A stretch of DNA of 64,000 nucleotides from a virus, in the IMG/VR virus record IMGVR_UViG_3300025087_000641, positions 1 through 64,000 of that record. The stretch is one strand, 5' to 3'. The notes beneath the pieces were generated by a model. The model was given only the letters and a program-made list of their open reading frames with translations. It was not told the DNA's origin and made no database searches. The translations under genes and the position numbers were made by a program. Below are positions 21,879 to 53,798 of the stretch, one piece after another. The first letter of the stretch is position 1; each line of letters opens with the position of its first letter.

Positions 21879-22601
21879 ATGAGTACTGCCCTCGTCAAGA
21901 CCTCGCCGGAGTCATGGCTGGAAGATATAAAGGCGGCCATCACAGACCCGAAGACGCTACAGTATGCCAGTGGCGTAGTTCCGGGTAGCAATGTCATCCC
22001 AGTTGAGTTATCGGACGCATTCAACACATTCCACATCAGGGCAATAAGTCACGCCACAACGAGGGGGGAACACGAGGCGCTGATGTATCTCTCGTTCTAC
22101 GTCATCCACCGTTACAAACTGTTTGTGGCGCACGGGGATGGCACATGGGAATCGTACTGCGATGAGATTGACTCCTCGCCAGTGGGTGTTAGCAAGTCAA
22201 GCATAAAAAGCAAGGTCAAGGATATTCAGGACTTGCTTGACAGAAAAGTATCCATAGAGAACATTGTCCAACTGCTTGCCATTGCGCCGATGTCTGCAAG
22301 AACTCTACCAGATGTGCCACACGATAAGTTGCCAAGTGGCGGAGTCAATGAGGCGGCAGAGAACATTATTGAACTTGGGCCTGATGAGGGGATGCGCTAT
22401 GTTGCAGACCTCGAAGGCAGACCGACAGTAAAGTGTATTGGACACGACTACAATAAGGCCAAAGAGAAACTGTTGCTAAAGTTGCGAACCAATGATAGAG
22501 AGTCTGGGAAGACTTACGACTCTGATTTGGTGGTGTCCAACGTTGGAGAGATTGAGGCGGAGTGGATGATAGCCAAGATGGGGAGGCGGAGAGTCACATG
22601 A
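21879..22601 (+). CDS. hypothetical protein
   Basis: 240 aa, ATGA overlaps. Confidence 0.7.
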   Translation: MSTALVKTSPESWLEDIKAAITDPKTLQYASGVVPGSNVIPVELSDAFNTFHIRAISHATTRGEHEALMYLSFYVIHRYKLFVAHGDGTWESYCDEIDSSPVGVSKSSIKSKVKDIQDLLDRKVSIENIVQLLAIAPMSARTLPDVPHDKLPSGGVNEAAENIIELGPDEGMRYVADLEGRPTVKCIGHDYNKAKEKLLLKLRTNDRESGKTYDSDLVVSNVGEIEAEWMIAKMGRRRVT

Positions 22602-23887
22602 CATATCGCGTGATGATATTGTCGGATCACGCATGGCGAGATGTTCCTGCCTGTGCCATAATCAAGGTGGAACTAGAAAAACTCCTGCCCGACTCCGAGA
22701 TTTTGATTGTTGACATCCATCTCCTCGGCATAATAACGGAGAGATTCCATCCTCATCTGGTTGTAGTCAATCACCTCCACGATCCGCGCCGTAACAAAAT
22801 CTTTGATTCTGTCAAGAGGCGTGGTGGGTTGATTGTGGTGAACGAGCCGGAGGGAAGAAGCAACACATGGGGTTCTATCAAGTGGGCAACAGAGGATTAC
22901 CCACACGAACTTTGTGACCTCTATCTGTGTTGGGGGACTGGCATTGCGGAACACATGCCAGAAGATGTGAAGTATGAGATTGTCGGGGGGCCGCGTTGGG
23001 ATTTTTATTATCCTCCATACAATCAACTTATCCAATCCAAAGAAATCTTGCTGGCGAGATATGGTTTAGACGCCACAAGACCGATAGTTACAGTCGCCTC
23101 ATCGTTCCCACAGGGCAAGTTTGCGAAGTCGTCTACAGACTTCCTGTTGAGAGATTGGAAGAATCTGAAACGTGACCAAGTGAAGGGTGGCGAGAATCCA
23201 GCCGAACATGCCAAGTCTGAGTTGGAGGCATTCAACAGATTCCAGTCGTGGCTAAGGACTCTGCGGTATGAATTTCCAGAATACCAGTTACTCATCAAGC
23301 CCCACCCGGCAGAGAATGTGGCAATGTGGACTAAATTCGCAGACGAGATTGGCGCAAGCCTCATGCCAATGGACTACGTTTTTAGTTTACTGGCATTGAG
23401 TGATTGTCATGTGGCGAGAGCCGAATGTATGACTATTCCAGAGGCATGGATAGCGGGCAAGCCAACAGTTCAGTGTTTGTTGGGAAATACCGGGAATGAG
23501 GGGCCAGGAATGGATGCGGCCAATCTTGTTGATTTCTTTCCTCCCGTTACGGATGTAACAGGATTCTTGGGACAAATTGAAACAGCAACAAGCATGATCT
23601 CCGGCACATCGCAATATCAGACAGAATATCTTGAAAAGTGGCTAGGCCCAATGCCTGGTTCTGCTACGAGAATTGCCAAGTCCATCCAGGACTTACTTGA
23701 CAGCAAACAACCAAAGACATGGAAAGAGCCGAGTTATCAGGATTGGGTGGAGATACACGGAGTCCTGGTTCAGCATTCACGCGATCATGCCAAACCAGAG
23801 GCAGACCTTATCGGACAGTGGAGTAAGCATGTCCGATATGAAGTAACACAGGATTGGGTAGGTCGCGCACGACGAGTGTCAGCATGA
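22598..23887 (+). CDS. surface carbohydrate biosynthesis protein (GT-B-like)
   Basis: RD, NEPEG, YLCWG, GGPRWD, IKPHPAE, EAWIAGKP motifs. Confidence 0.65.
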   Translation: MTYRVMILSDHAWRDVPACAIIKVELEKLLPDSEILIVDIHLLGIITERFHPHLVVVNHLHDPRRNKIFDSVKRRGGLIVVNEPEGRSNTWGSIKWATEDYPHELCDLYLCWGTGIAEHMPEDVKYEIVGGPRWDFYYPPYNQLIQSKEILLARYGLDATRPIVTVASSFPQGKFAKSSTDFLLRDWKNLKRDQVKGGENPAEHAKSELEAFNRFQSWLRTLRYEFPEYQLLIKPHPAENVAMWTKFADEIGASLMPMDYVFSLLALSDCHVARAECMTIPEAWIAGKPTVQCLLGNTGNEGPGMDAANLVDFFPPVTDVTGFLGQIETATSMISGTSQYQTEYLEKWLGPMPGSATRIAKSIQDLLDSKQPKTWKEPSYQDWVEIHGVLVQHSRDHAKPEADLIGQWSKHVRYEVTQDWVGRARRVSA

Positions 23888-24474
23888 TGACTCTCATTCT
23901 TGTTACATCCCTCTCACAACTATTCGTCCGCACCATCATCAAAGAACTGATGCATAGTTCTGATACTCTTGTGGTGGACACGAATCCACAAATCCATGTT
24001 GAACTAAAGAAGTTGAATATCAGTGCTATTCATCTAAACCCGACAAGAAATGTCCGAATAGATTGGGGAAATAGGGACTCCAATTTTAAGGGGCTTTTCA
24101 TGGATGGCGACCAATTAAAATGCAATTTTCCAGACACCACGCTACCGGTCTGGAAGGTTGTAGCGTTGGACAGATTTAGTTTCTGGTTCACAGATAAAGA
24201 ATCTGCCGAGTTATATGATATGATATGCGCTTTGGAATGGGACAAGTGTATTGCATCAGCAGATCTCAACAGCGACTTGGCGTGGACACTGGCGAGGTAT
24301 AGTGGCAAGCCAGTGTGGGGAATGAAGACATCTGGATTTAGGACTCGCGAGTGGTATGACCTCGGAATGACTGGCAATGTTCCGTTTGCGGGATTGTACG
24401 TTGGGAGTGAGTCTGACAAGTCGTTTTTATCCGAATTTGTACAACAAATACCAATTGAGACTGTAAACATATAG
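23884..24474 (+). CDS. hypothetical protein
   Basis: ATGA overlap. Confidence 0.6.
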   Translation: MMTLILVTSLSQLFVRTIIKELMHSSDTLVVDTNPQIHVELKKLNISAIHLNPTRNVRIDWGNRDSNFKGLFMDGDQLKCNFPDTTLPVWKVVALDRFSFWFTDKESAELYDMICALEWDKCIASADLNSDLAWTLARYSGKPVWGMKTSGFRTREWYDLGMTGNVPFAGLYVGSESDKSFLSEFVQQIPIETVNI

Positions 24475-24527
24475 GCAGGGGATTGTAAACACAGTTCTGG
24501 AAATTGTAAACATAGGACATATTCAAT

Positions 24528-25792: not shown

Positions 25793-26370
25793 AAAAGATT
25801 ATCTCGCTATTCCAAAGAAACTATGAAGGAGACAGACTCGTAAGGAATGAGATTGTTCCTAATGCTGAGTGGGTATTGTCGGGCGATGGGATTGCGACTC
25901 GCAAGTGGGATGGAACTGCCTGCATGGTAAGTAACGGCAATCTATACAAAAGATACGACGCCAAGAATGGCAAGATACCTCCCGCGGGATTCATTCCAGC
26001 ACAAGACCCAGACCCAGAAACGGGACATTGGCCGGGGTGGTTATTGGTTATGAATGACAAGTCTGACAAGTGGCATATTGAGGCACGGAACAACTGTGCT
26101 ACTTGGCCGTTGCCAAACTGGACATACGAATTGATTGGGCCGAAGATTCAGGGGAACGCAGAAGGATTGACGTTCAGTATGTTGATGCCTCACGGAAAAC
26201 AGTATCTTCCAGATTGTCCCAGAGATTATGACGGCATCGGGGAATATCTAAAAACACACGATATAGAGGGGATTGTTTGGTGGCGAGACATCAACAATAT
26301 AGATTGTGATAAAGTCAAGATAAAGACTAAAGACTTTGGCCTAAGGCGTGGAGTATCCAATGTCTTTTGA
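25789..26370 (+). CDS. RNA ligase-like nucleotidyltransferase (DUF5565-like)
   Basis: ATRKWDGT (KxDG), YELIGPKIQGN, IEGIVW, KIK..DF motifs. Confidence 0.7.
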   Translation: MKKIISLFQRNYEGDRLVRNEIVPNAEWVLSGDGIATRKWDGTACMVSNGNLYKRYDAKNGKIPPAGFIPAQDPDPETGHWPGWLLVMNDKSDKWHIEARNNCATWPLPNWTYELIGPKIQGNAEGLTFSMLMPHGKQYLPDCPRDYDGIGEYLKTHDIEGIVWWRDINNIDCDKVKIKTKDFGLRRGVSNVF

Positions 26371-27598
26371 TGGAAAGACAATCATTACTTTTGCTGGCCG
26401 AATTCATCACTGGCAACGTCTATCGCCAGTTGTAGATGAACTGCGAAAGCGAGGATGCACAGCGCCATATTTCATTTCGGACAACGCAATTCAGTTGGAT
26501 GCAAGCGAGGAATTCTTGATTCCCGCTTGCGAGTCATTCATCCACGCCCTCGATTTTCTTGATGTGGAGTCAACGGAACGCACCACAAGAATGACGCATG
26601 ACATCCTCGGAAAGATAGCGAAGCACAACGATAGAGAGTCTGACATTCGCTCATTCGTCTCTCCATTCTGGCTGGCTTATTCTGTTCGTGAGGCATGTGA
26701 GTTTTTGTGTGCTACCGAGAAGGCATTAGACTCTATAAAACCAGACGCCGTAATTGTCTTGCATCAACAAAATTTCTGGACGCGCACGCTTGGATATTTA
26801 GCAGACAGGCGAGGCATTCCAGTTGTCAGTTTTCAGGAGGGGAAGTTGAGAAGGCGCGATCAACAGACTCTAAATAAGCAAGCCACTGCCGCAGACGATT
26901 GCTCAAAACTTCTATGTTGGTCTGAATCTGCAAGGCAGGAGTATCTTGAGGCAGGCATTCCAGACTCTAAACTTGCCGTGACTGGCATTCCCCATCTCGC
27001 AGAGTGGTTTGGCTATATGGCCGAACCAAAGAACTGGCAACTCGGCAAGAAGATACAGAAGCAATCATTGGGATTTGACCCTGAGAGATGGTTAGTATCA
27101 TTCTTCCCGCCACTATTGAGTCGCTATGACGGCAATCCAAAGACGGCATTGGGGGCATTGGCAGACTGGTCGGCAAACAACTTCACGCAACTTGCAATTA
27201 GACTCCATCCGTTTGAGTACGAGGAGAATGTTGAGAAGTTGAAGTTCGGAATCAAAGACCATCCGTATGCGAAAGTGATTGAGAAAGACACCCTGCCATT
27301 GATAGCGTGTTCAGATGTTGTTATCTCACAGCACTCTACTGTGGCGGTTGAGACTCTGGCATTGGATGTTCCTTTGATTGAGATTGACCTAGACAATGTT
27401 GGTGTGCTAGAGAGTCTGGCAGAACAAGAAGTAGCAATTCCAATGGGCGGAGGCGAGTTATCTAAGATCAAGCAGGTATTGAATGGCGAGTTGAAGGTTA
27501 ATCCAGTCAAGTTGCAAGAATGGATAACTCAGAATGTTGGGCCGAGGGACGTAAGGATTGTAGATAGAGTCGTAAACGAGATTGAGAGGTTGCTGTGA
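26360..27598 (+). CDS. GT-B glycosyltransferase-like protein (CDP-glycerol/sialyltransferase-like)
   Basis: QEG, VTGIP, IRLHPFE, HSTVAVE.LALDVP motifs. Confidence 0.65.
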   Translation: MSFDGKTIITFAGRIHHWQRLSPVVDELRKRGCTAPYFISDNAIQLDASEEFLIPACESFIHALDFLDVESTERTTRMTHDILGKIAKHNDRESDIRSFVSPFWLAYSVREACEFLCATEKALDSIKPDAVIVLHQQNFWTRTLGYLADRRGIPVVSFQEGKLRRRDQQTLNKQATAADDCSKLLCWSESARQEYLEAGIPDSKLAVTGIPHLAEWFGYMAEPKNWQLGKKIQKQSLGFDPERWLVSFFPPLLSRYDGNPKTALGALADWSANNFTQLAIRLHPFEYEENVEKLKFGIKDHPYAKVIEKDTLPLIACSDVVISQHSTVAVETLALDVPLIEIDLDNVGVLESLAEQEVAIPMGGGELSKIKQVLNGELKVNPVKLQEWITQNVGPRDVRIVDRVVNEIERLL

Positions 27599-28126: not shown

Positions 28127-28396
28127 ATGAACAAAAGAAGAAGGATTGTAAGAGTCGGAATGACATTTGACTTATTGCTTAACATTATGGAATTGGGCTA
28201 TCGCATAGATAATGGGATAGAATGTGTTGAGGGATTGCCCGGTGATGCAGAATTCGTTGATTCATATGTTGATATTTCAACGCGCATTCTCTATCTTATC
28301 TTTCGACATCCAACATTTGACGAGGTTGAATTGGGTGCAATGATTCCAGAAAAGAGAATTGTGCATAGGATGAATCCGGTATTCAGGAATGAATAA
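28127..28396 (+). CDS. hypothetical protein
   Basis: AGGA SD; GLPGDA...HPTFDEV. Confidence 0.55.
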   Translation: MNKRRRIVRVGMTFDLLLNIMELGYRIDNGIECVEGLPGDAEFVDSYVDISTRILYLIFRHPTFDEVELGAMIPEKRIVHRMNPVFRNE

Positions 28397-29642
28397 AATA
28401 TCACTTGTCATTCCCACATATCAGCGTAAGGGGATTTTGGCGTGGACACTTTCAGAACTTGAGAGGCAATCGCTCTCGCGGGATATGTTTGAAGTTGTGG
28501 TGGTTGACGATTGTAGTACAGACGGCACTTATGAATATCTCCAATCCGCCACATTCCCGTACAACTTCAAGTATGCACAAACCGAAAAGAACTCTGGGCC
28601 TGCTACTGCCAGAAACATCGGTGTATCACTGTCAAGTAATCCAATCATATGCTTTATCGGGGATGACGCGATTCCATCGAAACATCTGCTCTATCGGCAT
28701 ATCCTCGCACACCACAATAAGGGTAATGAGGAGTGTGCCATACAGGGATATGCAGAATGGCATCCAAGTATCCCGCCAGACGACTTCCACAGATTTCTAC
28801 ATGGTGAGACTAAAATTGGCGGAGGCGGAATTCAAGCAAACTGGGCAGGGTTGAAAGACAAGAAAGGCAATTGGGTTGACGAGAATACAAACATTCCGGG
28901 GTGGTTCTTGACTCTCAATTGCAGTATCACAAGGAGTGTATTTGATTTCATCGGGGGTTTTCATCCATCATTCCCGATGGCCGCGTGGGAAGATATAGAA
29001 CTCAGCCTCCGTCTCGCAACTTTCGGATATAAAACTTACTTCTGCCGAGATAGTGTCGTACAGCATTTCCATAAGCAGACTCTTGACAGTTTTATTAGGC
29101 GTCAAATCATGGAGGGAAAATCAAGACTTCATCTCGTTGCCCTCCACCCCCATATGGCCCCTCAACTCTTGGATGTGGAGGGAATGCGGAGGGCCGAACA
29201 AGAACAGCCATACACCACATACGTAGAACTTGCCAGAGAACTCCACTACAATCAAGATGACTTGGTACAGGAAGCAAGACAGCACAGATGGATGCTTGCG
29301 CTAAGACTCGCCTCGCTAGAGGGTATCAGGCAGGGATTAGAAGAACGTGGTAGGGACTGTCACATCTGGTGGGCAGTCAAGCACTTGCACTTGAATGATG
29401 CTATAATGCAAGTCGTCGGATGTGCGGCGGCATGGGAAAAGGATGATTTAGAATACGCCACGGTCTGCTATGAGTGGGCGAACAAGCAAGAGCCAGACTC
29501 GTGGGTTATGCCCGCCATTCGTGGCGAGATACTTTTGAAACAGGGCAAGACTGGCGATGCACTCGCGGCGTTCAGGGAATCAATGTCAAAGAGTGCTGGC
29601 GAGAAGTGGCCGCTAGAAAGAGTTGAGGAGTTGTCTAAATGA
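28389..29642 (+). CDS. GT2 glycosyltransferase with C-terminal TPR-like helices
   Basis: ISLVIPTY, VVDDCSTDGT, GPATARNIG, FIGDD, WEDIELSLR. Confidence 0.9.
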   Translation: MNKISLVIPTYQRKGILAWTLSELERQSLSRDMFEVVVVDDCSTDGTYEYLQSATFPYNFKYAQTEKNSGPATARNIGVSLSSNPIICFIGDDAIPSKHLLYRHILAHHNKGNEECAIQGYAEWHPSIPPDDFHRFLHGETKIGGGGIQANWAGLKDKKGNWVDENTNIPGWFLTLNCSITRSVFDFIGGFHPSFPMAAWEDIELSLRLATFGYKTYFCRDSVVQHFHKQTLDSFIRRQIMEGKSRLHLVALHPHMAPQLLDVEGMRRAEQEQPYTTYVELARELHYNQDDLVQEARQHRWMLALRLASLEGIRQGLEERGRDCHIWWAVKHLHLNDAIMQVVGCAAAWEKDDLEYATVCYEWANKQEPDSWVMPAIRGEILLKQGKTGDALAAFRESMSKSAGEKWPLERVEELSK

Positions 29643-31195: not shown

Positions 31196-31431
31196 ATGCC
31201 GAAGCGTAGCCTTGCCAAATTGAACAAGAATAGAAACAGTAAACTCCTCGCCATGTTTGTGTGTCCAATTTGCAAGGCGACCCAGTTGACCATGTTGTTC
31301 CATTATCCAAGAATGGCGCGAATTCTATAGACAACATTCAGTGTTTGTGTTATTCATGTAATTGTTCAAAGAGGGACAAGACAATGGACTTTAGGCCAGA
31401 CTGCGGGAAATTTGCGAAGTCTCTAATATGA
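31196..31431 (+). pseudogene. frameshifted HNH endonuclease remnant
   Basis: CPIC in one frame; VDHVVPLSKNGANSIDNIQCLCYSCNCSK in the -1 frame, ending in ATGA overlap with the GT gene. Confidence 0.6.
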
Positions 31432-43293: not shown

Positions 43294-43615
43294 CAAAGTT
43301 AATATGGGATTTACTTCTAGACTGGCATGGGGATTATTTTCAAGAATAGAGAGTCCGGGATTTGGCGCATGTGAACGATGTGGAATGTCATGGGCTATAG
43401 TTAATGGACACGCCACTTATGTAGCAGGTGGTTTTGGAATATTCCCGCTATGCTTGGAATGCAAATTGGAATTATCGCCAGAGGAGCGATTGCCATATTA
43501 TCTTGCTCTCTATAAACGTTGGCCTACAATGCAATCACATTATTCCATTGATGAACTTACACAAGCGGTTTTGAATGAGGTTGTAGATGAGCGAGAATTG
43601 GAAAGTTGTTCTTGA
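43271..43615 (+). CDS. hypothetical protein (CxxC...CxxC)
   Basis: Packed ORF. Confidence 0.5.
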   Translation: MKERKAVDKVNMGFTSRLAWGLFSRIESPGFGACERCGMSWAIVNGHATYVAGGFGIFPLCLECKLELSPEERLPYYLALYKRWPTMQSHYSIDELTQAVLNEVVDERELESCS

Positions 43616-44510
43616 CCCACTCGGTTATTACCGACTCGACCCGATCCCGCAGGTAGCGGACTATTATCGAAAGGGATACCACGAGGCATCTGGCATGAAT
43701 CGTGCGCCTGATATGCGCCGTGCCATTGACGGTGGTGCGGAATACGATAGAGAGAAGTTCTGGCTGTCCTCGACTCTGTGGAATGACATTTTAGAGATTG
43801 GGATTCTATGCCTCCATCAATGGACAAAGGGGTATCACTTTCTGGATTACGGATGTGGAGTCGGTGATTTGTGCGTATACATGAGAGACTTCGGATGGGA
43901 AGTAGAGGGAGTGGAACCATCTGTGCTCGCATCAGGGATTGCCAAAAAGCACGGGGTGAATATTCACAAAGACCTGTCAACCGTCAAGGGATATGACATC
44001 ATTTCTGCTATCAATGTCTTAGAGCATGTCCCCGATCCTCAAAAGACTATTTTAGAACTTAGGTCACATCTCACCGAAGGAGGTGTACTTGTTATTCAGA
44101 CTCCGAATGACTTCTCGCCACTCCAGTCTGTTGTCAAAACAAAGGCAATGGGAAAGGATTATTGGGTTGCTTATCCAGACCATATCAACTACTTCAACTT
44201 CGACTCTCTAACAAAGTTACTTGAGCATTGTGGTATGAGAGTCGTCTATCGGATGGCGACATTTCCTATGGAGTGGTTCGTACTCCTGGGTGACAATTAC
44301 GTTCTCAATCGGGAGTTTGGCCCACGATGCCATAACAAGAGAATTGAGTTTGATTTATCCCTGCCAACTGAATACAGGCGCTCGCTCTATACTAAACTGG
44401 CAGAGATAGGATGGGGAAGGTCTTGCATATTGTTTGCAATAGACGCTAGTTACACAATGCCACAGATGAGACACGCTTTTGAGTGGATGAGAACAGAGGT
44501 CAAAGCGTGA
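43587..44510 (+). CDS. class I SAM-dependent methyltransferase (glycan-cluster type)
   Basis: LDYGCGVG, GVEPS, VLEHVPDP, TPND, HINYF. Confidence 0.85.
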   Translation: MSENWKVVLDPLGYYRLDPIPQVADYYRKGYHEASGMNRAPDMRRAIDGGAEYDREKFWLSSTLWNDILEIGILCLHQWTKGYHFLDYGCGVGDLCVYMRDFGWEVEGVEPSVLASGIAKKHGVNIHKDLSTVKGYDIISAINVLEHVPDPQKTILELRSHLTEGGVLVIQTPNDFSPLQSVVKTKAMGKDYWVAYPDHINYFNFDSLTKLLEHCGMRVVYRMATFPMEWFVLLGDNYVLNREFGPRCHNKRIEFDLSLPTEYRRSLYTKLAEIGWGRSCILFAIDASYTMPQMRHAFEWMRTEVKA

Positions 44511-45076
44511 AGGTCTTGTTTTTGGGCAACCCCAACTCGCCACTTGTGGAGTATCTTATTGGGACTGGTGAGAAAGTCATAGTCACATGGGACAAGATTG
44601 ACCCACAGACCATTGAAACCTATAAGCCAGATTTTCTTGTGAGTTATGGGTATCGCCACATCCTCCGCGAAAATGTGTTGAATATGTTGCCCGACAGGGC
44701 AGTGAATCTACATATCGCATTCCTCCCCTGGAATCGGGGTGCAGACCCGAACTTTTGGAGTTTCGCGGAGCATACGCCAAAGGGTGTTACAATTCATTAT
44801 CTTGACAAGGGTGTTGATACTGGTGACATCATAGCGCAGAGATGTGTTATGCCATTCCCCCATGACACATTCAAGACGAGTTACTATAGACTCCAATATG
44901 AAATACAAAAGTTATTCAAAGAGAACTGGGCAGAAATCAGAATTGGGGCATGTAATAGGAGCAAGCAGGGCAGACTTTGCACATTCCACCATTCAAAGGA
45001 CAAGAATAGATTGATGCATATGCTGACAGATGGATGGGATACTCCTATATCTGTGTTTGACGGGTATGAAGAATGA
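44507..45076 (+). CDS. sugar N-formyltransferase
   Basis: NLHIAFLPWNRGADP, GVTIH..D.GVDTGDI. Confidence 0.85.
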   Translation: MKVLFLGNPNSPLVEYLIGTGEKVIVTWDKIDPQTIETYKPDFLVSYGYRHILRENVLNMLPDRAVNLHIAFLPWNRGADPNFWSFAEHTPKGVTIHYLDKGVDTGDIIAQRCVMPFPHDTFKTSYYRLQYEIQKLFKENWAEIRIGACNRSKQGRLCTFHHSKDKNRLMHMLTDGWDTPISVFDGYEE

Positions 45077-46068
45077 ACGCGCTAAACATTCTTATAACCA
45101 GTGCCTCGCGCAAGGTGTCTCTTGTCAAGTCGTTTCAGCAGGCATTGAAGGAAGAGGGACTCGGCGGATTTGTTGTGGCGGCAGATTCCTCGCCAGACAG
45201 CGCCTCAATGCAGCTCGCGGATATGGGTGCAATTGTCCCGACACTTCCCAACAATGGAACAGATTACGAGTTCTTCAAAAGCATTGCTGAAATATGTATC
45301 CAGATGGGGATAGGCCTCGTTGTTCCAACTAGGGATGGAGAATTGCCGTTCTTTTCTGAACACAAAGAATTCTTTGCCGAACAGGGTATATTTGTCGCCA
45401 TACCAGACTCCGAGTGTGTAAGATTATGCCAAGATAAATTGGCATTCTGTGATTTCTGCGTTTCAAATAACTTCTCTGTGCCGCAGAAGATTGATGACGT
45501 AACGCGATTGCCAGTCTTTGTAAAAGCGCGAAATGGGCATGGTGGCAACTCTGCGGCGAGGGCTGATACACTGCCGGAATTATTTGCACTCAGGCGAAGA
45601 TATGGGGAGTCCATAACCCAAGAGAATATCAATGCACCAGAGTACACTATTGATGTGTTCTCAGATTCTAACTCAAAGGTATTGAGTGTTGTGCCTCGCC
45701 AGCGCATCAAGATCATGGGTGGAGAGTCTTGGGTAGGCAGGACAGAGAAGAATGCCGACATCATGCGAGAGAGTCAAAGACTAGCAGAGGCATTGAAACT
45801 AAAGTATCACAGTGTTATCCAGTGCTTCTATGACAATGGGATTGTCAAATTCATTGAGGTCAATCCTCGCTTTGGAGGGGCAAGTAATTGCAGTTTTGTG
45901 GCGGGTGCTAATAGTCCTCGCTGGCTAGTTCAATTGGCAACTGGCAGAGATGTAACAGCGCCCCCAATTGGGGACTTTCTGGACAATTTGACGATGTTAA
46001 GGTATAGTCAAGATACATTTGTTTATCCAGAGACGAACGATGAAACAAGACCCGAAAGGCCCGTTTGA
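45073..46068 (+). CDS. ATP-grasp protein (glycan-cluster CPS-like family)
   Basis: PTRDGEL, CQDK, EYTID, VPRQR, IEVNPRFGG. Confidence 0.85.
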   Translation: MNALNILITSASRKVSLVKSFQQALKEEGLGGFVVAADSSPDSASMQLADMGAIVPTLPNNGTDYEFFKSIAEICIQMGIGLVVPTRDGELPFFSEHKEFFAEQGIFVAIPDSECVRLCQDKLAFCDFCVSNNFSVPQKIDDVTRLPVFVKARNGHGGNSAARADTLPELFALRRRYGESITQENINAPEYTIDVFSDSNSKVLSVVPRQRIKIMGGESWVGRTEKNADIMRESQRLAEALKLKYHSVIQCFYDNGIVKFIEVNPRFGGASNCSFVAGANSPRWLVQLATGRDVTAPPIGDFLDNLTMLRYSQDTFVYPETNDETRPERPV

Positions 46069-46170: not shown

Positions 46171-46740
46171 ATGAAACGTCAAAATATAATAGAGTCGTCG
46201 CTAAAAGACTCTGCAACAGCGATGCTCTCTCTAATTCCCATAGTTCCATTTTTAGACAAATTTGCACAATCGGTTATAGAGACGTTTGACTCCGGAAACA
46301 AGATTATCGTCATTGGCAATGGCGGGAGTGCGGCGGACGCGCAACATTTTGCAACAGAGATGGTGGTGAGATATAAAAAAACTGGAATTGCGCTTCCCGC
46401 GATTGCACTGACGACTGATACAAGCATTCTGACAGCGACAGGAAACGACATCAACTTTGACCAGATATTTGCGAGGCAAGTTGAGGCGCTTGGCAGACGA
46501 GGCGATATGCTGTTAGCGATAAGCACAAGCGGAAACTCGCGTAACATTCTGAGGGCAGTTGAGGTTGCAAAGAATCTGAGTCTGTTCTGTGTGGCATTGA
46601 CTGGCAAAACTGGGGGGCGGTTATCGCAACTCTGCCACATGGTAATCAAAGTACCGCAGAATGCCACAAGTCGTATTCAAGAGGCGCATATTGCCATCTT
46701 ACATGCGGTATGCGAGGTGGTAGAAAGCCAGAAAAGATGA
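46171..46740 (+). CDS. gmhA: phosphoheptose isomerase (SIS domain)
   Basis: GNGGSAADAQH, TATGND, FARQVEA, STSGNS, RIQEAH. Confidence 0.9.
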   Translation: MKRQNIIESSLKDSATAMLSLIPIVPFLDKFAQSVIETFDSGNKIIVIGNGGSAADAQHFATEMVVRYKKTGIALPAIALTTDTSILTATGNDINFDQIFARQVEALGRRGDMLLAISTSGNSRNILRAVEVAKNLSLFCVALTGKTGGRLSQLCHMVIKVPQNATSRIQEAHIAILHAVCEVVESQKR

Positions 46741-46849
46741 GACGGATGCTGATTGAACTCATCATTTGGTTGATATTGGCGATTATCATAATTGTTGGCA
46801 TTGGACTCTTTGGTTGGGACACATGCGGCGGTCTGGTTTGGTGGTGCAT

Positions 46850-47671
46850 ATGAGTCTCGGAATAATGCAGGGACGCCTTGTCCCACCAATAGATGGCAAA
46901 CTACAGGCATTCCCCACAAATGGGTGGAACAAAGAACTAGAGATATGTCGAGGATTGGACGTTGCATATATTGAGTGGATTTATGATGGCGAGGACTTAT
47001 ACTTTTTGCCAAATCCAATCTCAACATTTGAGGGTGCAAATGCGCTGAGTGGGATACAGTCTCCTCGTATCGCGTCTCTGTGTGCTGATTACTTTGTGAA
47101 AGCGCCACTGCTGAGAGTGCCAGGGAATATTCTAGAACAGAGAATAGCAAAACTCAGATGGCTGGTTTTTCAATGCAGTCTTGCAAATATTCCCACTCTT
47201 GTTCTCCCATTTGTGGACGATAACGCGATTCGCACACACGGCGAAATTGATGATGTCATTTGTATTCTCTATGAACTTTCTGGATTAATTGACGCCTGTA
47301 ATGTCAGGATTGCGCTAGAAACAAATCTTGACGAATGTGATATGCAGACTCTTTCGCGTGAATTGGTAGATGTGTTTGTTGGAATAAATTACGACTCTGG
47401 AAATAGTGCATCGCTTGGTTATGATGTTGAAAAAGAATGGAATATGTATGGACATCGCATTGTCAATGTCCACATCAAAGATAGAGTCCTAAAGGGTAGC
47501 AGTGTGCCACTTGGCGAGGGCAGTACCAATTTTGATACACTGGCAAAGATGCTGTCTAAATTCAATTATCGCGGCAATGTAGTCTTACAGGTGGCGCGGG
47601 GAGAGTCGGGCAAAGAAGTTGAGTGGTATCACAAGAACAGGAACTTCCTGCTTGACAAGGGCATCGGATGA
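46850..47671 (+). CDS. sugar-phosphate isomerase/epimerase (xylose isomerase-like TIM barrel)
   Basis: GIMQGRL, IEW, CADYF, ALET, NYDSGN, VHIKD. Confidence 0.8.
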   Translation: MSLGIMQGRLVPPIDGKLQAFPTNGWNKELEICRGLDVAYIEWIYDGEDLYFLPNPISTFEGANALSGIQSPRIASLCADYFVKAPLLRVPGNILEQRIAKLRWLVFQCSLANIPTLVLPFVDDNAIRTHGEIDDVICILYELSGLIDACNVRIALETNLDECDMQTLSRELVDVFVGINYDSGNSASLGYDVEKEWNMYGHRIVNVHIKDRVLKGSSVPLGEGSTNFDTLAKMLSKFNYRGNVVLQVARGESGKEVEWYHKNRNFLLDKGIG

Positions 47672-47773: not shown

Positions 47774-48856
47774 ATGATTCCGCAAAGTCGTCATAGCATC
47801 ACCCGCGAGGACATCAAATTTGTTGGCAAGGCTCTTGCTGGCGACTTTCTGACTCGCGGGCCATTGACACTTGAGTTTGAGGCAAAGATAGCCGAATTGT
47901 GTGGCAAGAAGTATTGTGTCACAATGGCAAATGGGACAGTCGCCCTCCATGCCGCGCTATTGGCCTGCAATGCGAAGCATGTAGTCTCTCCAACTCTGAC
48001 ATTCTCTGCTATCGCCAACGCTACACACTTCGCTGGTGCTAAACTCTATCTCACAGATGTAGACTCATATAAACTCCATGCCACAACGTACAGCCAACCC
48101 CTTCCCGCGAAAGGGCTTGTTTTCGTTCCGATGGACTACGCTGGTCTGCCTTATAATCTGGACTCTTCTGGATTGGGGGCTGGCTATACTACTGTCATCC
48201 GTGATGCGTGCCACTCATTTGGGGCAACGATTAATGGAGAGTCGCATGTCAAGCGCGATGATATGGCCGTCTTTAGTTTTCATGCTATAAAGACAATATC
48301 ATCTGGAGAGGGGGGATGTGTCGTAACCGATGGCGAAGAATACGCCACAGAACTTCGGAGAATACGGAACAACGGACTAGAGAATCATCAACAGCATCGG
48401 TTTGGATTGAACTACCACATGAGCGAAATTGAGGTAGCACTTGGATTATCGCAGTTGAAACGACTTGACAAGATATTGGAGAGACGAAGAGAACTGGCAA
48501 GTAAGTATATTGAGCATTGGGCAGGACAATACGACAGAATTACTTTGCCCGCCGACGATAATGGTCATGCCTATCATCTATTCGTTATCCGCCTTGCCGA
48601 CTCTGTAAAAATAAAACGAGACACATTCCGAAGAGAACTTGCCGATATGGGCATTGGAACACAAGTCAACTATCGCCCCCTCCACAGACAACCCATTGTG
48701 GCGTCAGTAATTGACTCTGCGCTCACTGAGTTTCCGAACGCTGATTGGGCATGGGAACGAATGCTGAGTATCCCACTATACTATGGATTGACAGACAATG
48801 AACAGAAGGTGGTCATGAAAGCCATAGATAGACTGTTGGATAAACATGCCAAATAA
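47774..48856 (+). CDS. pseC: PLP-dependent sugar aminotransferase (PseC/DegT family)
   Basis: NGTVALHAA, DACHSFG, FSFHAIKTISSGEGG, GLNY.M, LGLSQL, AYHLF. Confidence 0.8.
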   Translation: MIPQSRHSITREDIKFVGKALAGDFLTRGPLTLEFEAKIAELCGKKYCVTMANGTVALHAALLACNAKHVVSPTLTFSAIANATHFAGAKLYLTDVDSYKLHATTYSQPLPAKGLVFVPMDYAGLPYNLDSSGLGAGYTTVIRDACHSFGATINGESHVKRDDMAVFSFHAIKTISSGEGGCVVTDGEEYATELRRIRNNGLENHQQHRFGLNYHMSEIEVALGLSQLKRLDKILERRRELASKYIEHWAGQYDRITLPADDNGHAYHLFVIRLADSVKIKRDTFRRELADMGIGTQVNYRPLHRQPIVASVIDSALTEFPNADWAWERMLSIPLYYGLTDNEQKVVMKAIDRLLDKHAK

Positions 48857-49646
48857 TCTATTTGACCTCACTGGCAAGGTGGCGATCATAACTGGCGGGG
48901 CAGGATTGCTTGGGCAACAGCACGCCGAGGCAATTGCGGCATTCGGCGGATGTCCGGTGATTCTGGACATTGATTATGATGCGGCCAGAAACATTATCAA
49001 GGAAATCGGCGTGGGGTTTGCGTTTGAATGTAATGTGACGCGCCCCCAAGATATTTATGATACGTTGAATGAAACACTTACGCTACGCGGGCATGTGGAT
49101 ATTCTCATCAACAATCTCTCTTGTAATGCCAATGTTGAATCTTTGGGACAATATTCACGCCTTGAATTCTATCCATATTCACAATGGGCAAAGGACTTGG
49201 AACTCGGATTGGGAAGTGCATTCCTATGTAGTAAAATAATTGGCAGTCACATGGCAGACAAAGGCAAGGGGGTGATTGTCAACATCGCCTCAGACCTCTC
49301 CGTGATAGCGCCAGATCAGAGGCTCTATCACAAAGAAGGACTTGCTGATGAGGAGCAGCCCAAAAAACCAATTTCTTATTCTGCAATAAAGCATGGTATT
49401 ATTGGGTTAACTCGCTACCTTGCGACATATTGGGCGGGTAGAGTTAGGGTAAATGCCATAAGTCCTGGTGGAATATTTAATAATCAGCCAGATGATTTTG
49501 TGCGACATATTAGCGACAGAATCCCAATGGGGCGCATGGCACGGGCAAATGAAATACAGGGAACATTGGTCTTTCTATGTTCTGATGCGTCATCATATAT
49601 GACTGGGCAAAATATTATTGTGGATGGCGGAAGGAGTATTTGGTAA
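48846..49646 (+). CDS. SDR family oxidoreductase
   Basis: TGGAGLLG, YSAIK, VNAISPGG, TGQNIIVDGG. Confidence 0.9.
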   Translation: MPNNLFDLTGKVAIITGGAGLLGQQHAEAIAAFGGCPVILDIDYDAARNIIKEIGVGFAFECNVTRPQDIYDTLNETLTLRGHVDILINNLSCNANVESLGQYSRLEFYPYSQWAKDLELGLGSAFLCSKIIGSHMADKGKGVIVNIASDLSVIAPDQRLYHKEGLADEEQPKKPISYSAIKHGIIGLTRYLATYWAGRVRVNAISPGGIFNNQPDDFVRHISDRIPMGRMARANEIQGTLVFLCSDASSYMTGQNIIVDGGRSIW

Positions 49647-50146
49647 TGAGGAAAATAGAATTATCAAGAGGATATACTTCTGACATTGATGATGAGGATT
49701 ATGAATGGGTATCCCAATACAAATGGAATGTTTCACTGTGTAACCATACCCAATATGCTTATAGATATTCTTACAAGCCGAATGGGACTGGGGCGAAGAA
49801 ATACATGCACCGCGAGATAATGGAAAGATATAACGGGGCATTAGGGAGTGGTATGCAGATAGACCATATAAATCACGATGGACTGAACAACAGGAAAACA
49901 AATCTTAGGATATGTACCCAGTCCCAAAACAATTGGAACGGGAGGGGGATTTTGGAGGGAACCTCAAAATACAAGGGAGTATACTTTTACAAAAGTCGCG
50001 GGAAATGGGTTGCACAAATGTGCCTTTTCGGGAAGCGCATTTTCATTGGTAGATTCGACAGCGAAATTGATGCGGCAAGAGCATATGACAGAGTAGCAAA
50101 AGAAAAGTATGGAGAATTTGCGAAACTGAACTTCCCGGAGGAATAA
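49646..50146 (+). CDS. HNH-AP2 homing endonuclease
   Basis: MHREI...DHINHDGLNNRKTNLR, followed by AP2 domain SKYKGV...AARAYD...GEFAKLNF. Confidence 0.9.
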   Translation: MRKIELSRGYTSDIDDEDYEWVSQYKWNVSLCNHTQYAYRYSYKPNGTGAKKYMHREIMERYNGALGSGMQIDHINHDGLNNRKTNLRICTQSQNNWNGRGILEGTSKYKGVYFYKSRGKWVAQMCLFGKRIFIGRFDSEIDAARAYDRVAKEKYGEFAKLNFPEE

Positions 50147-50943
50147 TGACGATGGATTTATTGGCTTCTAATTTATTCTCCGTGGCGGGGAAGACAGCCC
50201 TTGTCACTGGGGCAAATGGTTATTTAGGACAAGTGGTGGCAGGAGTCCTTAAACAGAATGGTGCAAGTGTTATTGGGACTTATGCAACAAAAATCCCAAC
50301 AGATGGATTCTGTGATGAGTGGTATCTGATTGATTCAAATTCGCCATATCCAGACTTGGAAGAAAGATTGCGCGAAATTGAATCTAATAACCAAATAGAT
50401 GTCCTTATCAACAACGCGCATCCCATGAAACGCGAGGCTGGATTCAATGTTGAGACAGACCAAATAGAACACTATTCACGGGCAGAATGGCAACAGAACA
50501 TCAATGGCGCTATTGGACTCCCGGCACTCACAACATCAATCATTGGGGCGGGGATGAAAGATAGAGGGCATGGTAGTATTATCAACATCAGTAGCATGTA
50601 CGCCCTCGTTGCCCCCCATCCAAATTTGTACAAAGATACGCTATACATGAATCCGCCCGGATATGGGGCAAGCAAGGCGGCTCTACTTGAGTTTACTCGC
50701 TATGTGGCGGCATTCTGGGGACAGTATGGAGTGCGGTGTAATGCCCTGTGTCTTGGCCCATTCCCGAAATCAATTACACCAGAGATGCAAGAGTTCATCA
50801 CGCGGTTGAACTCGCGCACTTGTCTTAATAGAACTGGCAGGGCAGGGGAGATAGCTGGAGCAATTCTATTTCTGGCGAGTGAGGCATCGTCATACATGAC
50901 GGGCCATGCCCTAGTCCTCGATGCTGGATGGTGTGCCACATGA
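50146..50943 (+). CDS. SDR family oxidoreductase
   Basis: TGANGYLG, NNA, YGASK, GPFP, TGHALVLDAG. Confidence 0.9.
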   Translation: MTMDLLASNLFSVAGKTALVTGANGYLGQVVAGVLKQNGASVIGTYATKIPTDGFCDEWYLIDSNSPYPDLEERLREIESNNQIDVLINNAHPMKREAGFNVETDQIEHYSRAEWQQNINGAIGLPALTTSIIGAGMKDRGHGSIINISSMYALVAPHPNLYKDTLYMNPPGYGASKAALLEFTRYVAAFWGQYGVRCNALCLGPFPKSITPEMQEFITRLNSRTCLNRTGRAGEIAGAILFLASEASSYMTGHALVLDAGWCAT

Positions 50944-51105: not shown

Positions 51106-51963
51106 GTGACTAATCCCTGTGTCCATTGCAACGAGAATGAGTCAGACTTTGACACATACCTCTGCAAGAAATGTGCCGAGGACTTTCAGGTTACACCACA
51201 AACAACGAGGGATTTCTATGGCTTTCTGGCTAGAACGGGAAGGTCGTATCTAACATCGTATTTGTCAAGGCCAGACCAAGAACAGGGGAAGCCTCACGAT
51301 TATATCTTTGCCGCGCCTGCCGCAAGTTTTCACCACGCTAGACGATTCAATTTCTTTACTCGCATGGCAGAACTTGTGCGAGGTGTTCCGGGGGACATTG
51401 TGGAGTGTGGCGTAGAACATGGGCAGACATTACTATATTGGCTATCCATTGCATTTGACGAATTGACGCCACGAAATGTATGGGGATTTGACTCTTTCGC
51501 CGGGCCAGAAACAGTTGGAGAGAAAGATAAGAATTCTAATGGCGACATATATCCGCCCCTTCCGAATGTCTATGCTAGGGCAACCGAGGGATTTATCAAT
51601 CTCCTGAATGCCTATGGACTTCCTCGTATTTGGACGAACTCACATTTAGTCGTCATACCCGGCTTTTTCTCTGAGACTCTGAAAGATTATAGGGGCGAGA
51701 AGATAGCGATTCTTCACCTTGACGCGAACTACTACGACAGTTACAAAACTTGTATGGAGATGCTGTGGCCGAAAGTGGCCCGTGGTGGAGTTGTAATTTT
51801 TGATGAATACCAAAATCAAAATGATACTCTACACTTTGCTGGTGCAAAACGCGCAATAGACGAATATATGGAAACACTCAAGGATGACGGAACGACAATC
51901 ACGAGGGACAAAATGTATGGCAAATTCTATTGCATCAAGGGAGGCATTCAATGGCGGATTTAG
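51106..51963 (+). CDS. TylF/MycF/NovP-family sugar O-methyltransferase
   Basis: GDIVECGV, GFDSF, GFFSETL, LHLDAN, GGVVIFDEY. Confidence 0.8.
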   Translation: MTNPCVHCNENESDFDTYLCKKCAEDFQVTPQTTRDFYGFLARTGRSYLTSYLSRPDQEQGKPHDYIFAAPAASFHHARRFNFFTRMAELVRGVPGDIVECGVEHGQTLLYWLSIAFDELTPRNVWGFDSFAGPETVGEKDKNSNGDIYPPLPNVYARATEGFINLLNAYGLPRIWTNSHLVVIPGFFSETLKDYRGEKIAILHLDANYYDSYKTCMEMLWPKVARGGVVIFDEYQNQNDTLHFAGAKRAIDEYMETLKDDGTTITRDKMYGKFYCIKGGIQWRI

Positions 51964-52835
51964 TTATCGGCGGTAGCCCAATTGGGGACGGACACCCAGT
52001 AATTTGTATAGGAGAGGAGGGTATAAATCATCAGGGCAATATAGATATTGCCAAGAAACTTGTTGATGTTTGTATTGAGGCAGGTTGCAATGCTGTCAAG
52101 ATGCAATCTCGTACAGTTGATGTAGTTTATTCGGAAGAGGAACTTTCCAGGCCGAGAGAGTCGCCCTTTGGAACAACAAATGGAGACTTGAAACGCGGTC
52201 TTGAATTGGGGAGGAAAGAATATGACGAATTTGATGCTTACTGCAAATCAAAGAGTATGACATGGCTTTCCTCATGTTGGGATGAAGCGTCTGTTGATTT
52301 TATTGCACAATACAACCCACCATGTTTCAAGATTGCCTCTGCCTGTATCACGGATGATAACCTGCTAAGACATCATCTACAATATCATAAGCCACTCATT
52401 ATCAGTACGGGGATGACAACTTTGCGCCAAATTGACCATGCCATTGAAATTGTCGGGACTGACAATGTTGCCCTAATGCATTGCATTGGAGTTTATCCGG
52501 CTGATCCGAGGACTCTAAACCTTCGTGTTATCCAAACACTGAAAGAGCGGTATAATGTTCCCGTTGGATGGAGCGGACATGAAGTAGGACTCGCTACAAC
52601 CGTTGCGGCTGTGGCGATGGGTGCAAATCTTGTTGAGAGGCATGTCACATTGGATAGGGCAATGTTCGGCTCAGATCAGTCGGCCTCGGTAGAACCCCAG
52701 GGATTGAAAAGACTTGTCAGGGATATTCGGGTTGTTGAAGATGCAATGGGGGATGGCGTAAAACGAGTATTGCCTGCCGAGTCTGTTGTGGCAAATAAGT
52801 TGCGCCGTGTTGACACTCTGAAACAGGAGGGGTGA
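51951..52835 (+). CDS. neuB: second NeuB-family synthase (short, Kdn-9-P-synthase-like)
   Basis: GINHQG, RESPFG, KIASA, STGM, MHC..YP, GWSGHE, VERH.TLDR, GSDQ. Confidence 0.88.
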   Translation: MADLVIGGSPIGDGHPVICIGEEGINHQGNIDIAKKLVDVCIEAGCNAVKMQSRTVDVVYSEEELSRPRESPFGTTNGDLKRGLELGRKEYDEFDAYCKSKSMTWLSSCWDEASVDFIAQYNPPCFKIASACITDDNLLRHHLQYHKPLIISTGMTTLRQIDHAIEIVGTDNVALMHCIGVYPADPRTLNLRVIQTLKERYNVPVGWSGHEVGLATTVAAVAMGANLVERHVTLDRAMFGSDQSASVEPQGLKRLVRDIRVVEDAMGDGVKRVLPAESVVANKLRRVDTLKQEG

Positions 52836-53269
52836 TGACTGGGCGACCAGATCTGACGTTTCAGATTTCCGAGAGTGACAATGAGGTTTATGATGTCATG
52901 CGGGATTTGGCACAACGACTTGGCCTGACCGAGTTACGGACGAGTCCCATGACGATGGTGAGTTGGACTGCGCCCGCGCCAATTGTAGAAACTCCTCCAC
53001 CATCCAATCCTCAACCATCTCGAAATGCCCCATACAAGTTGGCAACACGAGTGCCAACACGCATTCAGTTTGTTGGAGAAGTCAATTGCTGGGTTGCGCC
53101 AGACCCAAATTCGCGCAAGTTGACTTTTACTGACAATCGGGAGGTGGACATCTTCGAGGAGAGAGATACCGAGTTGTTTGGAAAGTGGTGGTGCGTACTC
53201 CATAAAACATTGCCGAGTGGTGAACTGTTTGAATTATGGATTCCGGCTGCGTATTTTGTTCTGTTCTGA
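52832..53269 (+). CDS. hypothetical protein (SH3-like C-terminus)
   Basis: Pro-rich linker then beta domain; GTGA overlap. Confidence 0.5.
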   Translation: MMTGRPDLTFQISESDNEVYDVMRDLAQRLGLTELRTSPMTMVSWTAPAPIVETPPPSNPQPSRNAPYKLATRVPTRIQFVGEVNCWVAPDPNSRKLTFTDNREVDIFEERDTELFGKWWCVLHKTLPSGELFELWIPAAYFVLF

Positions 53270-53273
53270 AAAG

Positions 53274-53798
53274 ATGATTAAGGTCGCAATATTCGATACC
53301 GATGGAGTTATGTCCGATGGCGCAGTAATCTACCTCGATGGTGGGGTGCGAGGCAGAGTCTTCAATGTCAGAGATGGACAAGGGATTACCAATCTAAAGC
53401 ACGCCGAGGTATCTGTCTGGCTAGTCAGTGGCGAACAAGACTCTCATCTGTTTGACCGTTCCGAGAAGTTGGGCGTAGACCAATTGTTTGGATTGCCAGA
53501 CAAACGCAGAGTCCTAGAGGAACTTCCGCTTGACATAAACAACGACGAAATAGCATTCATGGGTGATGACATTGGGGACATTCCGCTGCTGATGATGGTG
53601 GGTATGCCTGCGTGCCCACAGGACGCTCACCGTGACGTTGTGAACTGCGTTGTTAGTCTACGTGGGTTTGTCGCCACAAAAAATGGCGGCAAGGGGGCAG
53701 TACGAGAGTTCTGCGACTATATATTGACAAGAAACAGACTCGATACTGCCCCAGAGTATATGCGAGAGATTGGAGAGTTGAAAAACGCATTGGAATAG
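53274..53798 (+). CDS. KdsC-like HAD phosphatase
   Basis: FDTDGV.SDG, FNVRDG, MGDDIGD, GGKGAVREF. Confidence 0.85.
   Translation: MIKVAIFDTDGVMSDGAVIYLDGGVRGRVFNVRDGQGITNLKHAEVSVWLVSGEQDSHLFDRSEKLGVDQLFGLPDKRRVLEELPLDINNDEIAFMGDDIGDIPLLMMVGMPACPQDAHRDVVNCVVSLRGFVATKNGGKGAVREFCDYILTRNRLDTAPEYMREIGELKNALE

Follow-up and report, generated by a model that had tools for sequence, protein, structure and literature searches.

The window analysed here (the whole stretch of 64,000 nucleotides) comprises bases 1-64000 of the 105,404-base IMG/VR virus record IMGVR_UViG_3300025087_000641, which is linear and 85% complete (CheckV). A sugar island of about 32 kilobases (kb) lies on its + strand, from about 21.9 to 53.8 kb, and carries genes for ulosonic-acid biosynthesis, glycosyltransferases and tailoring enzymes (Table 1; genes are referred to below by their start positions). 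All genes named in an earlier note on this DNA were recovered on the + strand, none starting more than 40 bases from the position given there; starts 22598, 26360 and 39838 are those of public gene callers, the last being an alternative start of NeuB1. The tailoring enzymes reported in that note were also recovered, namely the formyltransferase (44483), the ATP-grasp ligase (45073), two methyltransferases (43587 and 51106), an epimerase (42394) and two short-chain dehydrogenases/reductases (SDRs; 48846 and 50146). The PseJ identity of the formyltransferase and the genes for TnpB (37247), a LAGLIDADG protein (39024) and an HNH-AP2 protein (49640) had been missed. So had a second NeuB (51930-52835) and a KdsC-type phosphatase, and the gene content is better read as two synthase modules than as the single pathway proposed at that time.

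Table 1. Predicted features of the sugar island and the neighbouring tape-measure gene
Feature	Position	Strand	Basis and remarks
GT-B glycosyltransferase, BFO_1060 / 'surface carbohydrate biosynthesis' family	22562..23887	+	NF046086 126.6 bits; candidate cytidine monophosphate (CMP)-nonulosonic-acid transferase
Second, divergent BFO_1060-family transferase	26348..27598	+	NF046086 48.6 bits; 21-23% identical to 22562
GT2-family glycosyltransferase	28389..29642	+	PF00535, E 9e-22; no transmembrane segment
DNA methyltransferase	29943-30767		Inside island; N6/N4 amino type, like others in phage
GT-B glycosyltransferase (Glyco_trans_1_4 / Glycos_transf_1), GT4-type	31428..32558	+	PF13692, E 4e-14
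PseB-like uridine diphosphate N-acetylglucosamine (UDP-GlcNAc) 4,6-dehydratase	33454..34470	+	TIGR03589 333 bits (cut-off 407.75); PF02719, E 1e-77
PD40 (TolB-like beta-propeller repeat) small protein	35511-36050		In island; one N-terminal hydrophobic segment
PseF-like CMP-sugar cytidylyltransferase	36504..37214	+	TIGR03584 100.6 bits over 1-219/222 (cut-off 205.7)
TnpB (IS605 OrfB)	37247..38431	+	PF01385, PF07282, PF12323; directly after cytidylyltransferase gene
GNAT acetyltransferase	38564..39046	+	PF13302, E 4e-13; possible N-acetyl/acyl transferase, generic
Free-standing LAGLIDADG homing endonuclease	39024..39851	+	PF14528, E 5e-11; between GNAT and NeuB1
NeuB1, divergent SAF-less ulosonic-acid synthase	39817..40731	+	PF03102, E 7e-49
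Histidine-phosphatase-superfamily enzyme	40955..41533	+	PF00300, E 5e-52
Miniature PseG-like UDP-sugar hydrolase	41661..42407	+	248 amino acids; TIGR03590 49.8 bits (cut-off 153.55)
NAD-dependent epimerase/dehydratase	42394..43293	+	PF01370, E 9e-29
S-adenosylmethionine methyltransferase (Methyltransf_23)	43587..44510	+	PF13489, E 1e-27
PseJ-type N-formyltransferase	44483..45076	+	197 amino acids; phmmer E 1e-54 to PDB 6CI2/6CI4
ATP-grasp ligase (PRK12767 type), candidate N-acyl/aminoacyl ligase	45073..46068	+	NF009405 237 bits; PDB 2PN1, E 6e-27
GmhA-like SIS sugar-phosphate isomerase	46171..46740	+	TIGR00441 193 bits; 47% identical homologs in 45/80 cellular loci
Xylose-isomerase-like TIM-barrel enzyme	46766..47671	+	PF01261, E 4e-12; 40% identical homologs in 45/80 loci
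PseC-like aminotransferase	47774..48856	+	TIGR03588 275 bits, full length (cut-off 423.5)
SDR, PRK09186/PtmA-like	48846..49646	+	NF006619 164 bits; NF050062 PtmA 103 bits; 53% identical homologs in 55/80 loci
HNH-AP2 homing endonuclease	49640..50146	+	PF13392, PF00847; between the two SDRs
Second SDR	50146..50943	+	PF13561, E 2e-29; homologs in 54/80 cellular loci
TylF-type O-methyltransferase	51106..51963	+	PF05711, E 3e-23
NeuB2, SAF-less synthase	51930..52835	+	PF03102, E 2e-74
KdsC / Kdn-9-P-phosphatase-type HAD phosphatase	53178..53798	+	Probable start 53274; HAD motifs
Tape-measure gene	60951-63515	-	PHROGs profile

One group of these genes (module A) would constitute a plausible full route to a CMP-activated sugar of the pseudaminic acid (Pse) type. 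The earlier note had counted homologs of all six Pse steps; PseB-, PseC-, PseG- and PseF-like proteins and NeuB-family enzymes were indeed found, but no PseH signal and no canonical PseI. For the 33454 protein, the PseB model came out far ahead with 333 bits (FnlA reached 206 and LegB 66), and the 47774 protein scored 275 bits with PseC, against 191 with ArnB and 143 with LegC. The strongest single pointer to pseudaminic chemistry is the PseJ homology of the 44483 protein, which aligned over its full length with the PDB 'formyltransferase PseJ' at 188 bits, the next family scoring 107 bits. PseJ is the formyltransferase credited with the branch leading to 5-N-acetyl-7-N-formyl pseudaminic acid (Pse5Ac7Fo; PMC11040635), and a 7-N-formyl product would be expected because the phage enzyme is a close homolog of PseJ. 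The GNAT protein at 38564 gave no match to the TIGR03585 PseH model at E <= 0.001, and its PDB matches included no PseH structure, the best being a spermidine acetyltransferase; N-acylation would be better explained by the PseJ-type formyltransferase than by a PseH-like GNAT. For the ATP-grasp protein at 45073, a PDB search yielded no named function.

The putative PseG at 41661 belongs to a rare and short family, yet 50 of 50 aligned relatives matched the PseG model. Its AlphaFold (AF2) model had a predicted local distance difference test (pLDDT) score of 94.5, and the top Foldseek matches were the Campylobacter jejuni PseG structures 3HBM/3HBN (E 6e-7). A G-x-G-H motif is nearly invariant in the family, and its histidine (His18) presumably corresponds to the catalytic histidine of C. 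jejuni PseG. NeuB1 scored 178 bits with NeuB_NnaB and 158 bits with PseI (TIGR03586), both below cut-off (PseI, 340), and both metal-binding histidine residues aligned. In a tree of 143 synthase sequences, with reference sequences from Pseudomonadota only and deep nodes without resolution, NeuB1 formed its own clade outside both PseI and NeuB/LegI. By its gene context, NeuB1 is the candidate condensing enzyme of module A. NeuB2 scored 186 bits on the PseI model, below the same cut-off, and higher on NeuB_NnaB; neither predicted synthase is a canonical PseI.

NeuB2 appears to belong to a second ulosonic-acid module (module B), whose own phosphatase implies a phosphosugar route. The two synthases are 24% identical, and the NeuB2 clade was tightly conserved, SAF-less and sister to NeuB/LegI in the tree. 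The 53178 protein had no Pfam match; all HAD motifs of its capless family of about 160 amino acids were present (DxDGV nucleophile, S/T motif II, K, GDDxxD and GGxGAVRE), and the family profile matched KdsC at E 1e-46 and, at E 9e-39, PDB 3E81, which we take to be the Bacteroides thetaiotaomicron ketodeoxynonulosonic acid 9-phosphate (Kdn-9-P) phosphatase. In the routes through Kdn-9-P, N-acetylneuraminic acid 9-phosphate (Neu5Ac-9-P) and 3-deoxy-D-manno-octulosonate 8-phosphate (Kdo-8-P), phosphoenolpyruvate (PEP) is condensed with a phosphorylated aldose and a phosphatase then acts. NeuB2 would therefore condense PEP with a phosphorylated aldose, since a dedicated ulosonate-phosphate phosphatase makes sense only then. 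A PDB search with the TIM-barrel protein at 46766 yielded no named function. Assignment of the SIS protein at 46171 as PtmF was dropped, PtmF being a 326-amino-acid oxidoreductase (Plesiomonas paper).

Relatives of module B were found in bacteria. A scan of genome contigs with a single protein gave no matches, but an alignment-based scan found genes 60-65% identical to NeuB2 in at least 592 stretches, with carriers in Chloroflexota, Myxococcota, Acidobacteriota, Nitrospirota, Planctomycetota and others. Six partners were scored around NeuB2 homologs (both SDRs, the SIS protein, the TIM barrel, a cytidylyltransferase and the 53178 protein), and at least four of the six lay within 10 kb in 50 of 80 bacterial loci, spanning at least 12 phyla. 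Homologs of PseG, PseJ, the ATP-grasp ligase, the histidine phosphatase and the GNAT protein were absent from all of these loci, which argues for an origin of the cassette separate from that of route A; next to the cassette, PseB-like genes were detected in no more than 11 of the 80 loci and PseC-like genes in no more than 19. The two modules probably lead to two different activated sialic-acid-like sugars.

The bacterial cassette itself consists of a SAF-less NeuB2, a KdsC-like HAD protein, a cytidylyltransferase, a GmhA-like SIS protein, a TIM barrel, a PtmA-like SDR and a GFO/IDH/MocA oxidoreductase. Example loci are L010:7900-15300, L016:10000-16700 and L028:5500-10900 (from the set L008-L087). 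The homolog of the 53178 protein in an Anaerolineales locus (L010) is a HAD domain fused to a cytidylyltransferase, and the Chloroflexota loci hold two NeuB2 paralogs, two cytidylyltransferases and a cytidylyltransferase-HAD fusion. No description of the cassette product was found in a literature search.

Two of the four glycosyltransferases are candidates for the transfer of such sugars. The 22562 protein (441 amino acids) matched NF046086 across the whole model at 126.6 bits (cut-off 200) and TIGR04396 at 105 bits, and its K-x-H-P and E-G motifs were invariant. Its AF2 model (pLDDT 92) had a GT-B fold, and Foldseek with this model returned generic GT-B matches only and no specific sialyltransferase. 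The H-P and E-G motifs were invariant across the BFO_1060 family and in both phage paralogs (22562 and 26348). In strain 92A2, BFO_1060 is the ortholog of those Tannerella transferases of legionaminic acid (Leg) and Pse derivatives that are genetically required to add these derivatives to a protein O-glycan (PMC5420450). All four transferases (22562/22598, 26348/26360, 28389 and 31428) look soluble, as the earlier note had proposed, because the proteins of the island each have at most one hydrophobic segment; a single N-terminal segment was seen only in the proteins at 35511-36050 and 23854-24474. The same check revealed neither a multi-pass membrane protein nor a Wzx, Wzy, ABC permease or WecA-like protein in the island, in agreement with the reported lack of an exporter.

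The record is a genuine tailed phage, apparently non-temperate. PHROGs profiles beyond 64 kb identified a large terminase (TerL), a portal, a head protease and a major head protein, and no integrase or resolvase was matched in the record. The tape-measure gene is followed by genes for proteins of 989 and 726 amino acids without assignment and two small proteins, the last of which ends at 53822, and the 3' end of the island meets these convergent tail genes head-on at a distance of 24 bases, so that it abuts the tail operon as previously described. The upstream region shares the orientation of the island and contains genes for RtcB, for DNA methyltransferases and for an annealing protein of the Mgm101 type.

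The island is resident phage DNA. Tetranucleotide usage of its parts correlated with that of the rest of the phage at 0.84-0.94, and the guanine-plus-cytosine (GC) content was 0.45-0.46 in the island and 0.46-0.48 in the backbone. The cellular loci with the closest homologs had 61-66% GC and a tetranucleotide correlation with the island of about 0. The motif TGTGGCG, taken in the earlier note as a signature of the phage, was counted 71 times in the window, where 7 copies were expected (33-53.8 kb holds 16 of the 71); its density per kb was 0.74-1.26 in the island, within the backbone range of 0.53-1.64, and 0.1-0.3 in the nearest cellular loci. Five ATGA overlaps, also reported before, were present among the 42 gene junctions, together with 20 other overlaps. 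Genes of phage type within the island encode a DUF5131 protein, a Phage_ABA_S protein, the DNA methyltransferase, TnpB and the LAGLIDADG and HNH-AP2 proteins. Exact protein matches were found on contigs from JGI, ENA and Logan: 32 for NeuB2, 24 for NeuB1 and 22+7 for the 22562 protein. Contigs with identical island proteins included independent ones of 75.8 kb and 63.5 kb, and four island proteins each had graded metagenome relatives at 65-98% identity. With this composition and identical proteins on tens of independent contigs, the view that the genes are resident and not freshly captured held.

All open reading frames (ORFs) of the island were intact and their catalytic motifs kept. Homing elements lie inside the sugar island, as the LAGLIDADG and HNH-AP2 ORFs sit between its genes, and they appear to have colonised it with the genes left unbroken. 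The cytidylyltransferase ORF upstream of TnpB (element region 37095-38561) was full length against the PseF model. For a 145-amino-acid ORF at 52832, the ESM Atlas gave SH3-like leads only, all below threshold.

On balance we lean, without strong conviction, towards a glycan island, about 32 kb long and resident in the phage, that encodes two cytoplasmic ulosonic-acid routes with their transferases and whose acceptor is one or more virion proteins. The genes with their families and conserved catalytic motifs, the two fold predictions, the residency and the bacterial conservation of the route-B cassette are results, whereas we infer the enzymatic steps, the split into two routes and, most of all, the acceptor. 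In route A, PseB would dehydrate UDP-GlcNAc, PseC would aminate the dehydrated UDP-sugar and PseJ would formylate the 4-amino group, the GNAT protein or the ATP-grasp ligase being possible alternative acyl donors. The miniature PseG would then remove UDP, NeuB1 would condense the product with PEP, and the single cytidylyltransferase would activate it with CMP; the expected product would be a CMP-Pse5Ac7Fo-type sugar, possibly further methylated or epimerised. In route B, the GmhA-like isomerase, the TIM-barrel enzyme and the SDRs would prepare a sugar phosphate, NeuB2 would condense it with PEP, the KdsC-type phosphatase would take off the phosphate as in the Kdn-9-P and Kdo-8-P pathways, and the resulting acid would be CMP-activated. 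The GT2 and GT4-type enzymes probably build a short glycan, which the two BFO_1060-family transferases probably cap with the ulosonic acid or acids, on at least one virion protein, this modification taking place in the cytoplasm prior to assembly or in the course of it.

No membrane, flippase, integrase, Maf, TET, C5-methylase or ThyA-like genes were seen in the record, which favours a protein acceptor in the cytoplasm, probably part of the virion. Virion proteins are our favoured guess in view of the soluble enzymes, the missing export genes, how much the phage invests and the precedent of the mycobacteriophages. A bolder version, in which the phage displays two acidic sugars on its particle, a formylated pseudaminic acid and the product of an uncharacterised phosphosugar cassette from at least 12 phyla, seems distinctly improbable; on that reading the cassette, because its isomerase is GmhA-like, could yield a hitherto unknown ulosonic acid, such as one made from a heptose phosphate and not from mannose 6-phosphate. 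Among the head genes, three small, mildly serine/threonine-rich paralogs (141-159 amino acids, 22-25% serine plus threonine) lie at 78426-79788 of the record (L117:14426-15788) on the - strand, just downstream of the gene for the major head protein, and two of them share SGTS(N/D)GTF...FGAS. These paralogs are possible head-decoration proteins and candidate glycan acceptors.

Several findings weigh against the virion-glycan reading. The profile and phylogenetic placement proposed in the earlier note gave PseB, PseC and PseF as best models, but all Pse-family scores were below the NCBIfam equivalog cut-offs, and both synthases fell outside the PseI clade (support 100; Pseudomonadota-only references) and ended before the SAF domain. 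PF02348 had a single match in the 105-kb record, at 36504, leaving one cytidylyltransferase for two proposed acids, and the GFO/IDH/MocA oxidoreductase that accompanies route B in bacteria was not seen in the phage. No strongly serine/threonine-rich virion protein was found and no acceptor was identified. Flagellin or pilin modified via Maf, one of the acceptors considered earlier, is not supported, since no Maf-type gene (MptE-like, PF01973) was matched in the record. The record itself is only 85% complete. The island is oriented like the early and replication genes and not like the late operon, and the Tannerella precedent for the BFO_1060 family acts on a cellular surface glycan (PMC5420450).

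The last two points would suit a phage that puts the same sugars on host surface glycoconjugates (O-antigen, capsule, S-layer or cytoplasmic-face protein O-glycan intermediates), using the host lipid carrier and flippase and thereby blocking superinfection or altering recognition of the infected cell. We regard this as a minority possibility of real weight. The characterised BFO_1060-family members cap a cellular protein O-glycan (PMC5420450), the sole published phage-borne nonulosonic-acid function is remodelling of the host capsule by EpaA/EpaB of Acinetobacter prophages (PMC12053666), and cyanophage cell-wall gene sets have been interpreted in the same way (PMC12801897). However, stable lysogenic conversion is unlikely in a record with no integrase or resolvase, no priming transferase, flippase, polymerase or multi-pass membrane protein is present, and about 20 biosynthetic genes would be a heavy cost for a benefit within one lytic cycle. 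The phage's own DNA, another acceptor raised in the earlier note, looks very unlikely to be hypermodified with ulosonic-acid glycans as an escape from restriction and CRISPR, because no Tet/JBP dioxygenase (PF12851), C5-cytosine methyltransferase (PF00145) or thymidylate-synthase-like (ThyA-like) hydroxymethylase (PF00303) was found in the record, which is 85% complete. Reconstituted phage clusters do place Kdo, heptose and oligosaccharides on 5-hydroxymethylcytosine, some of them with HAD and cytidylyltransferase genes (bioRxiv 10.1101/2023.12.21.572611). A methyltransferase gene also lies inside the island and further ones elsewhere in the phage, but these are of the amino type; no T4 DNA glucosyltransferase was among the Foldseek matches listed for the 41661 and 22562 models, and the recovery of the phage in many independent short-read assemblies is weak evidence in the same direction.

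The gene content could also be read as a single pathway to one pseudaminic-type acid, with NeuB2, the phosphatase, the SIS protein, the TIM barrel and the SDRs being redundant or tailoring the product, for example by 8-epimerisation as by EpaB/AciE. The lone cytidylyltransferase, the interleaving of route-B genes with PseC and the methyltransferases, and the tailoring of finished nonulosonic acids by EpaB/AciE-type adh_short_C2 SDRs (PMC12053666) are in its favour. We nevertheless find it unlikely, given that the two synthases are divergent and in different clades, that NeuB2 and five neighbours co-travel in bacteria with no PseG, PseJ, ATP-grasp, histidine-phosphatase or GNAT homologs nearby, and that the nucleotide-sugar route to Pse has no use for a KdsC-type phosphatase. 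That the contig is a chimera with a host glycan locus, which the earlier note would have taken as a refutation, or that the genes are decaying cargo, is barely credible: the record is linear and incomplete and the island holds three mobile elements, but the island resembles the backbone in composition and motif density, in sharp contrast to the loci of the cellular homologs, phage genes occur on its flanks and between its genes, identical proteins recur on tens of independent contigs, and the ORFs are all intact with conserved catalytic motifs.

The phage was compared with the closest known systems. With the Pse pathway of Helicobacter and Campylobacter, and its Pse5Ac7Fo branch in Anoxybacillus, the phage has in common PseB-, PseC-, PseG- and PseF-like proteins, a PseJ homolog and a NeuB-family enzyme, and the same order of chemistry would be expected. 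It differs in being phage-encoded, in a PseG about 30 residues shorter than that of C. jejuni and about 90 shorter than homologs of about 340 amino acids, in a SAF-less synthase outside the PseI clade, in lacking a PseH-family enzyme and in its sub-equivalog scores. Route B would follow the logic of the Kdn-9-P synthase and phosphatase of B. thetaiotaomicron and of the KdsD-KdsA-KdsC-KdsB route to Kdo (isomerase, PEP condensation, KdsC-family phosphatase, CMP transferase), except that the phage isomerase is GmhA-like and that there are, in addition, a TIM-barrel enzyme and two SDRs. The Tannerella forsythia proteins Tanf_01245, TFUB4_00887 and BFO_1060 are of the same NCBIfam family and nearly the same length (442-445 amino acids, against 441 in the phage), with H-P and E-G conserved, whereas the phage score is below the family cut-off (126.6 vs 200) and there are two divergent paralogs in a phage context.

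For the mycobacteriophages Che8, Corndog and Myrna, virion glycosylation is likewise ascribed to soluble phage glycosyltransferases presumed to modify structural proteins in the cytoplasm (Freeman et al. 2023, cited in PMC12801897). Those phages use host nucleotide sugars and two to four genes, whereas the phage described here would use about 20 genes to make its own activated acidic sugars. In Acinetobacter baumannii prophages, EpaA/EpaB (a cytidylyltransferase-like protein plus an SDR of the adh_short_C2 type) are likewise phage-borne and act on pseudaminic acid, but they are a two-gene tailoring system of temperate phages that works on a host-made sugar for the host capsule. The DNA glycan hypermodification clusters (methyltransferase, 5mYOX and glycosyltransferase), whose sugars include Kdo, share phage-encoded sugar activation and transfer with this phage, which lacks their defining methyltransferase/dioxygenase pair.

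A megablast search of 50,697 GenBank phage records with the island and with the first 20 kb gave no matches. A protein survey of the same records found three with a NeuB2-like gene, three with a PseB-like gene and none with the full set, and at least 29 IMG/VR contigs carried NeuB2-type genes, accompanied in some by partners. Close relatives identified through the major head protein were all short fragments ending short of the island. A literature search found no paper on a phage-encoded complete nonulosonic-acid pathway. If phages do wear bacterial sialic-acid-like sugars, this would add a new layer to how phages interact with hosts and environment (adsorption, stability and evasion of grazers or immunity), with relevance to phage therapy and the glycobiology of viruses. 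The predicted enzyme set is compact (a formyl branch of the PseJ type, a miniature PseG, a pair of SAF-less synthases and two candidates for nonulosonic-acid transfer), and nonulosonic-acid transferases are scarce and wanted for glycoengineering. The island also points to a six-gene bacterial cassette of many phyla with NeuB2, a KdsC-like phosphatase, a GmhA-like isomerase, a TIM barrel, SDRs and a cytidylyltransferase.

In the marine cyanophage record MH319754.1 (L258, a Kyanoviridae single-virus genome), positions 11000-23700 hold a NeuB2-like gene (40% identity) with a PtmA-like SDR (44%), an aminotransferase and an epimerase beside it, a partial counterpart to route B in a classified phage family. 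At the start of the present record, the RtcB RNA ligase gene lies at 416-1588, and ARAGORN predicted a tRNA-Ile (anticodon TAT) at 2642-2717, within the 3' end of the ORF following RtcB. The dispersed 12-mer TAGTCAAATTTG occurred 11 times in the window against 0.5 expected, and two overlapping opposite-strand copies, with one mismatch each, lie at 53796-53811, exactly at the convergent junction of the island and the tail genes.

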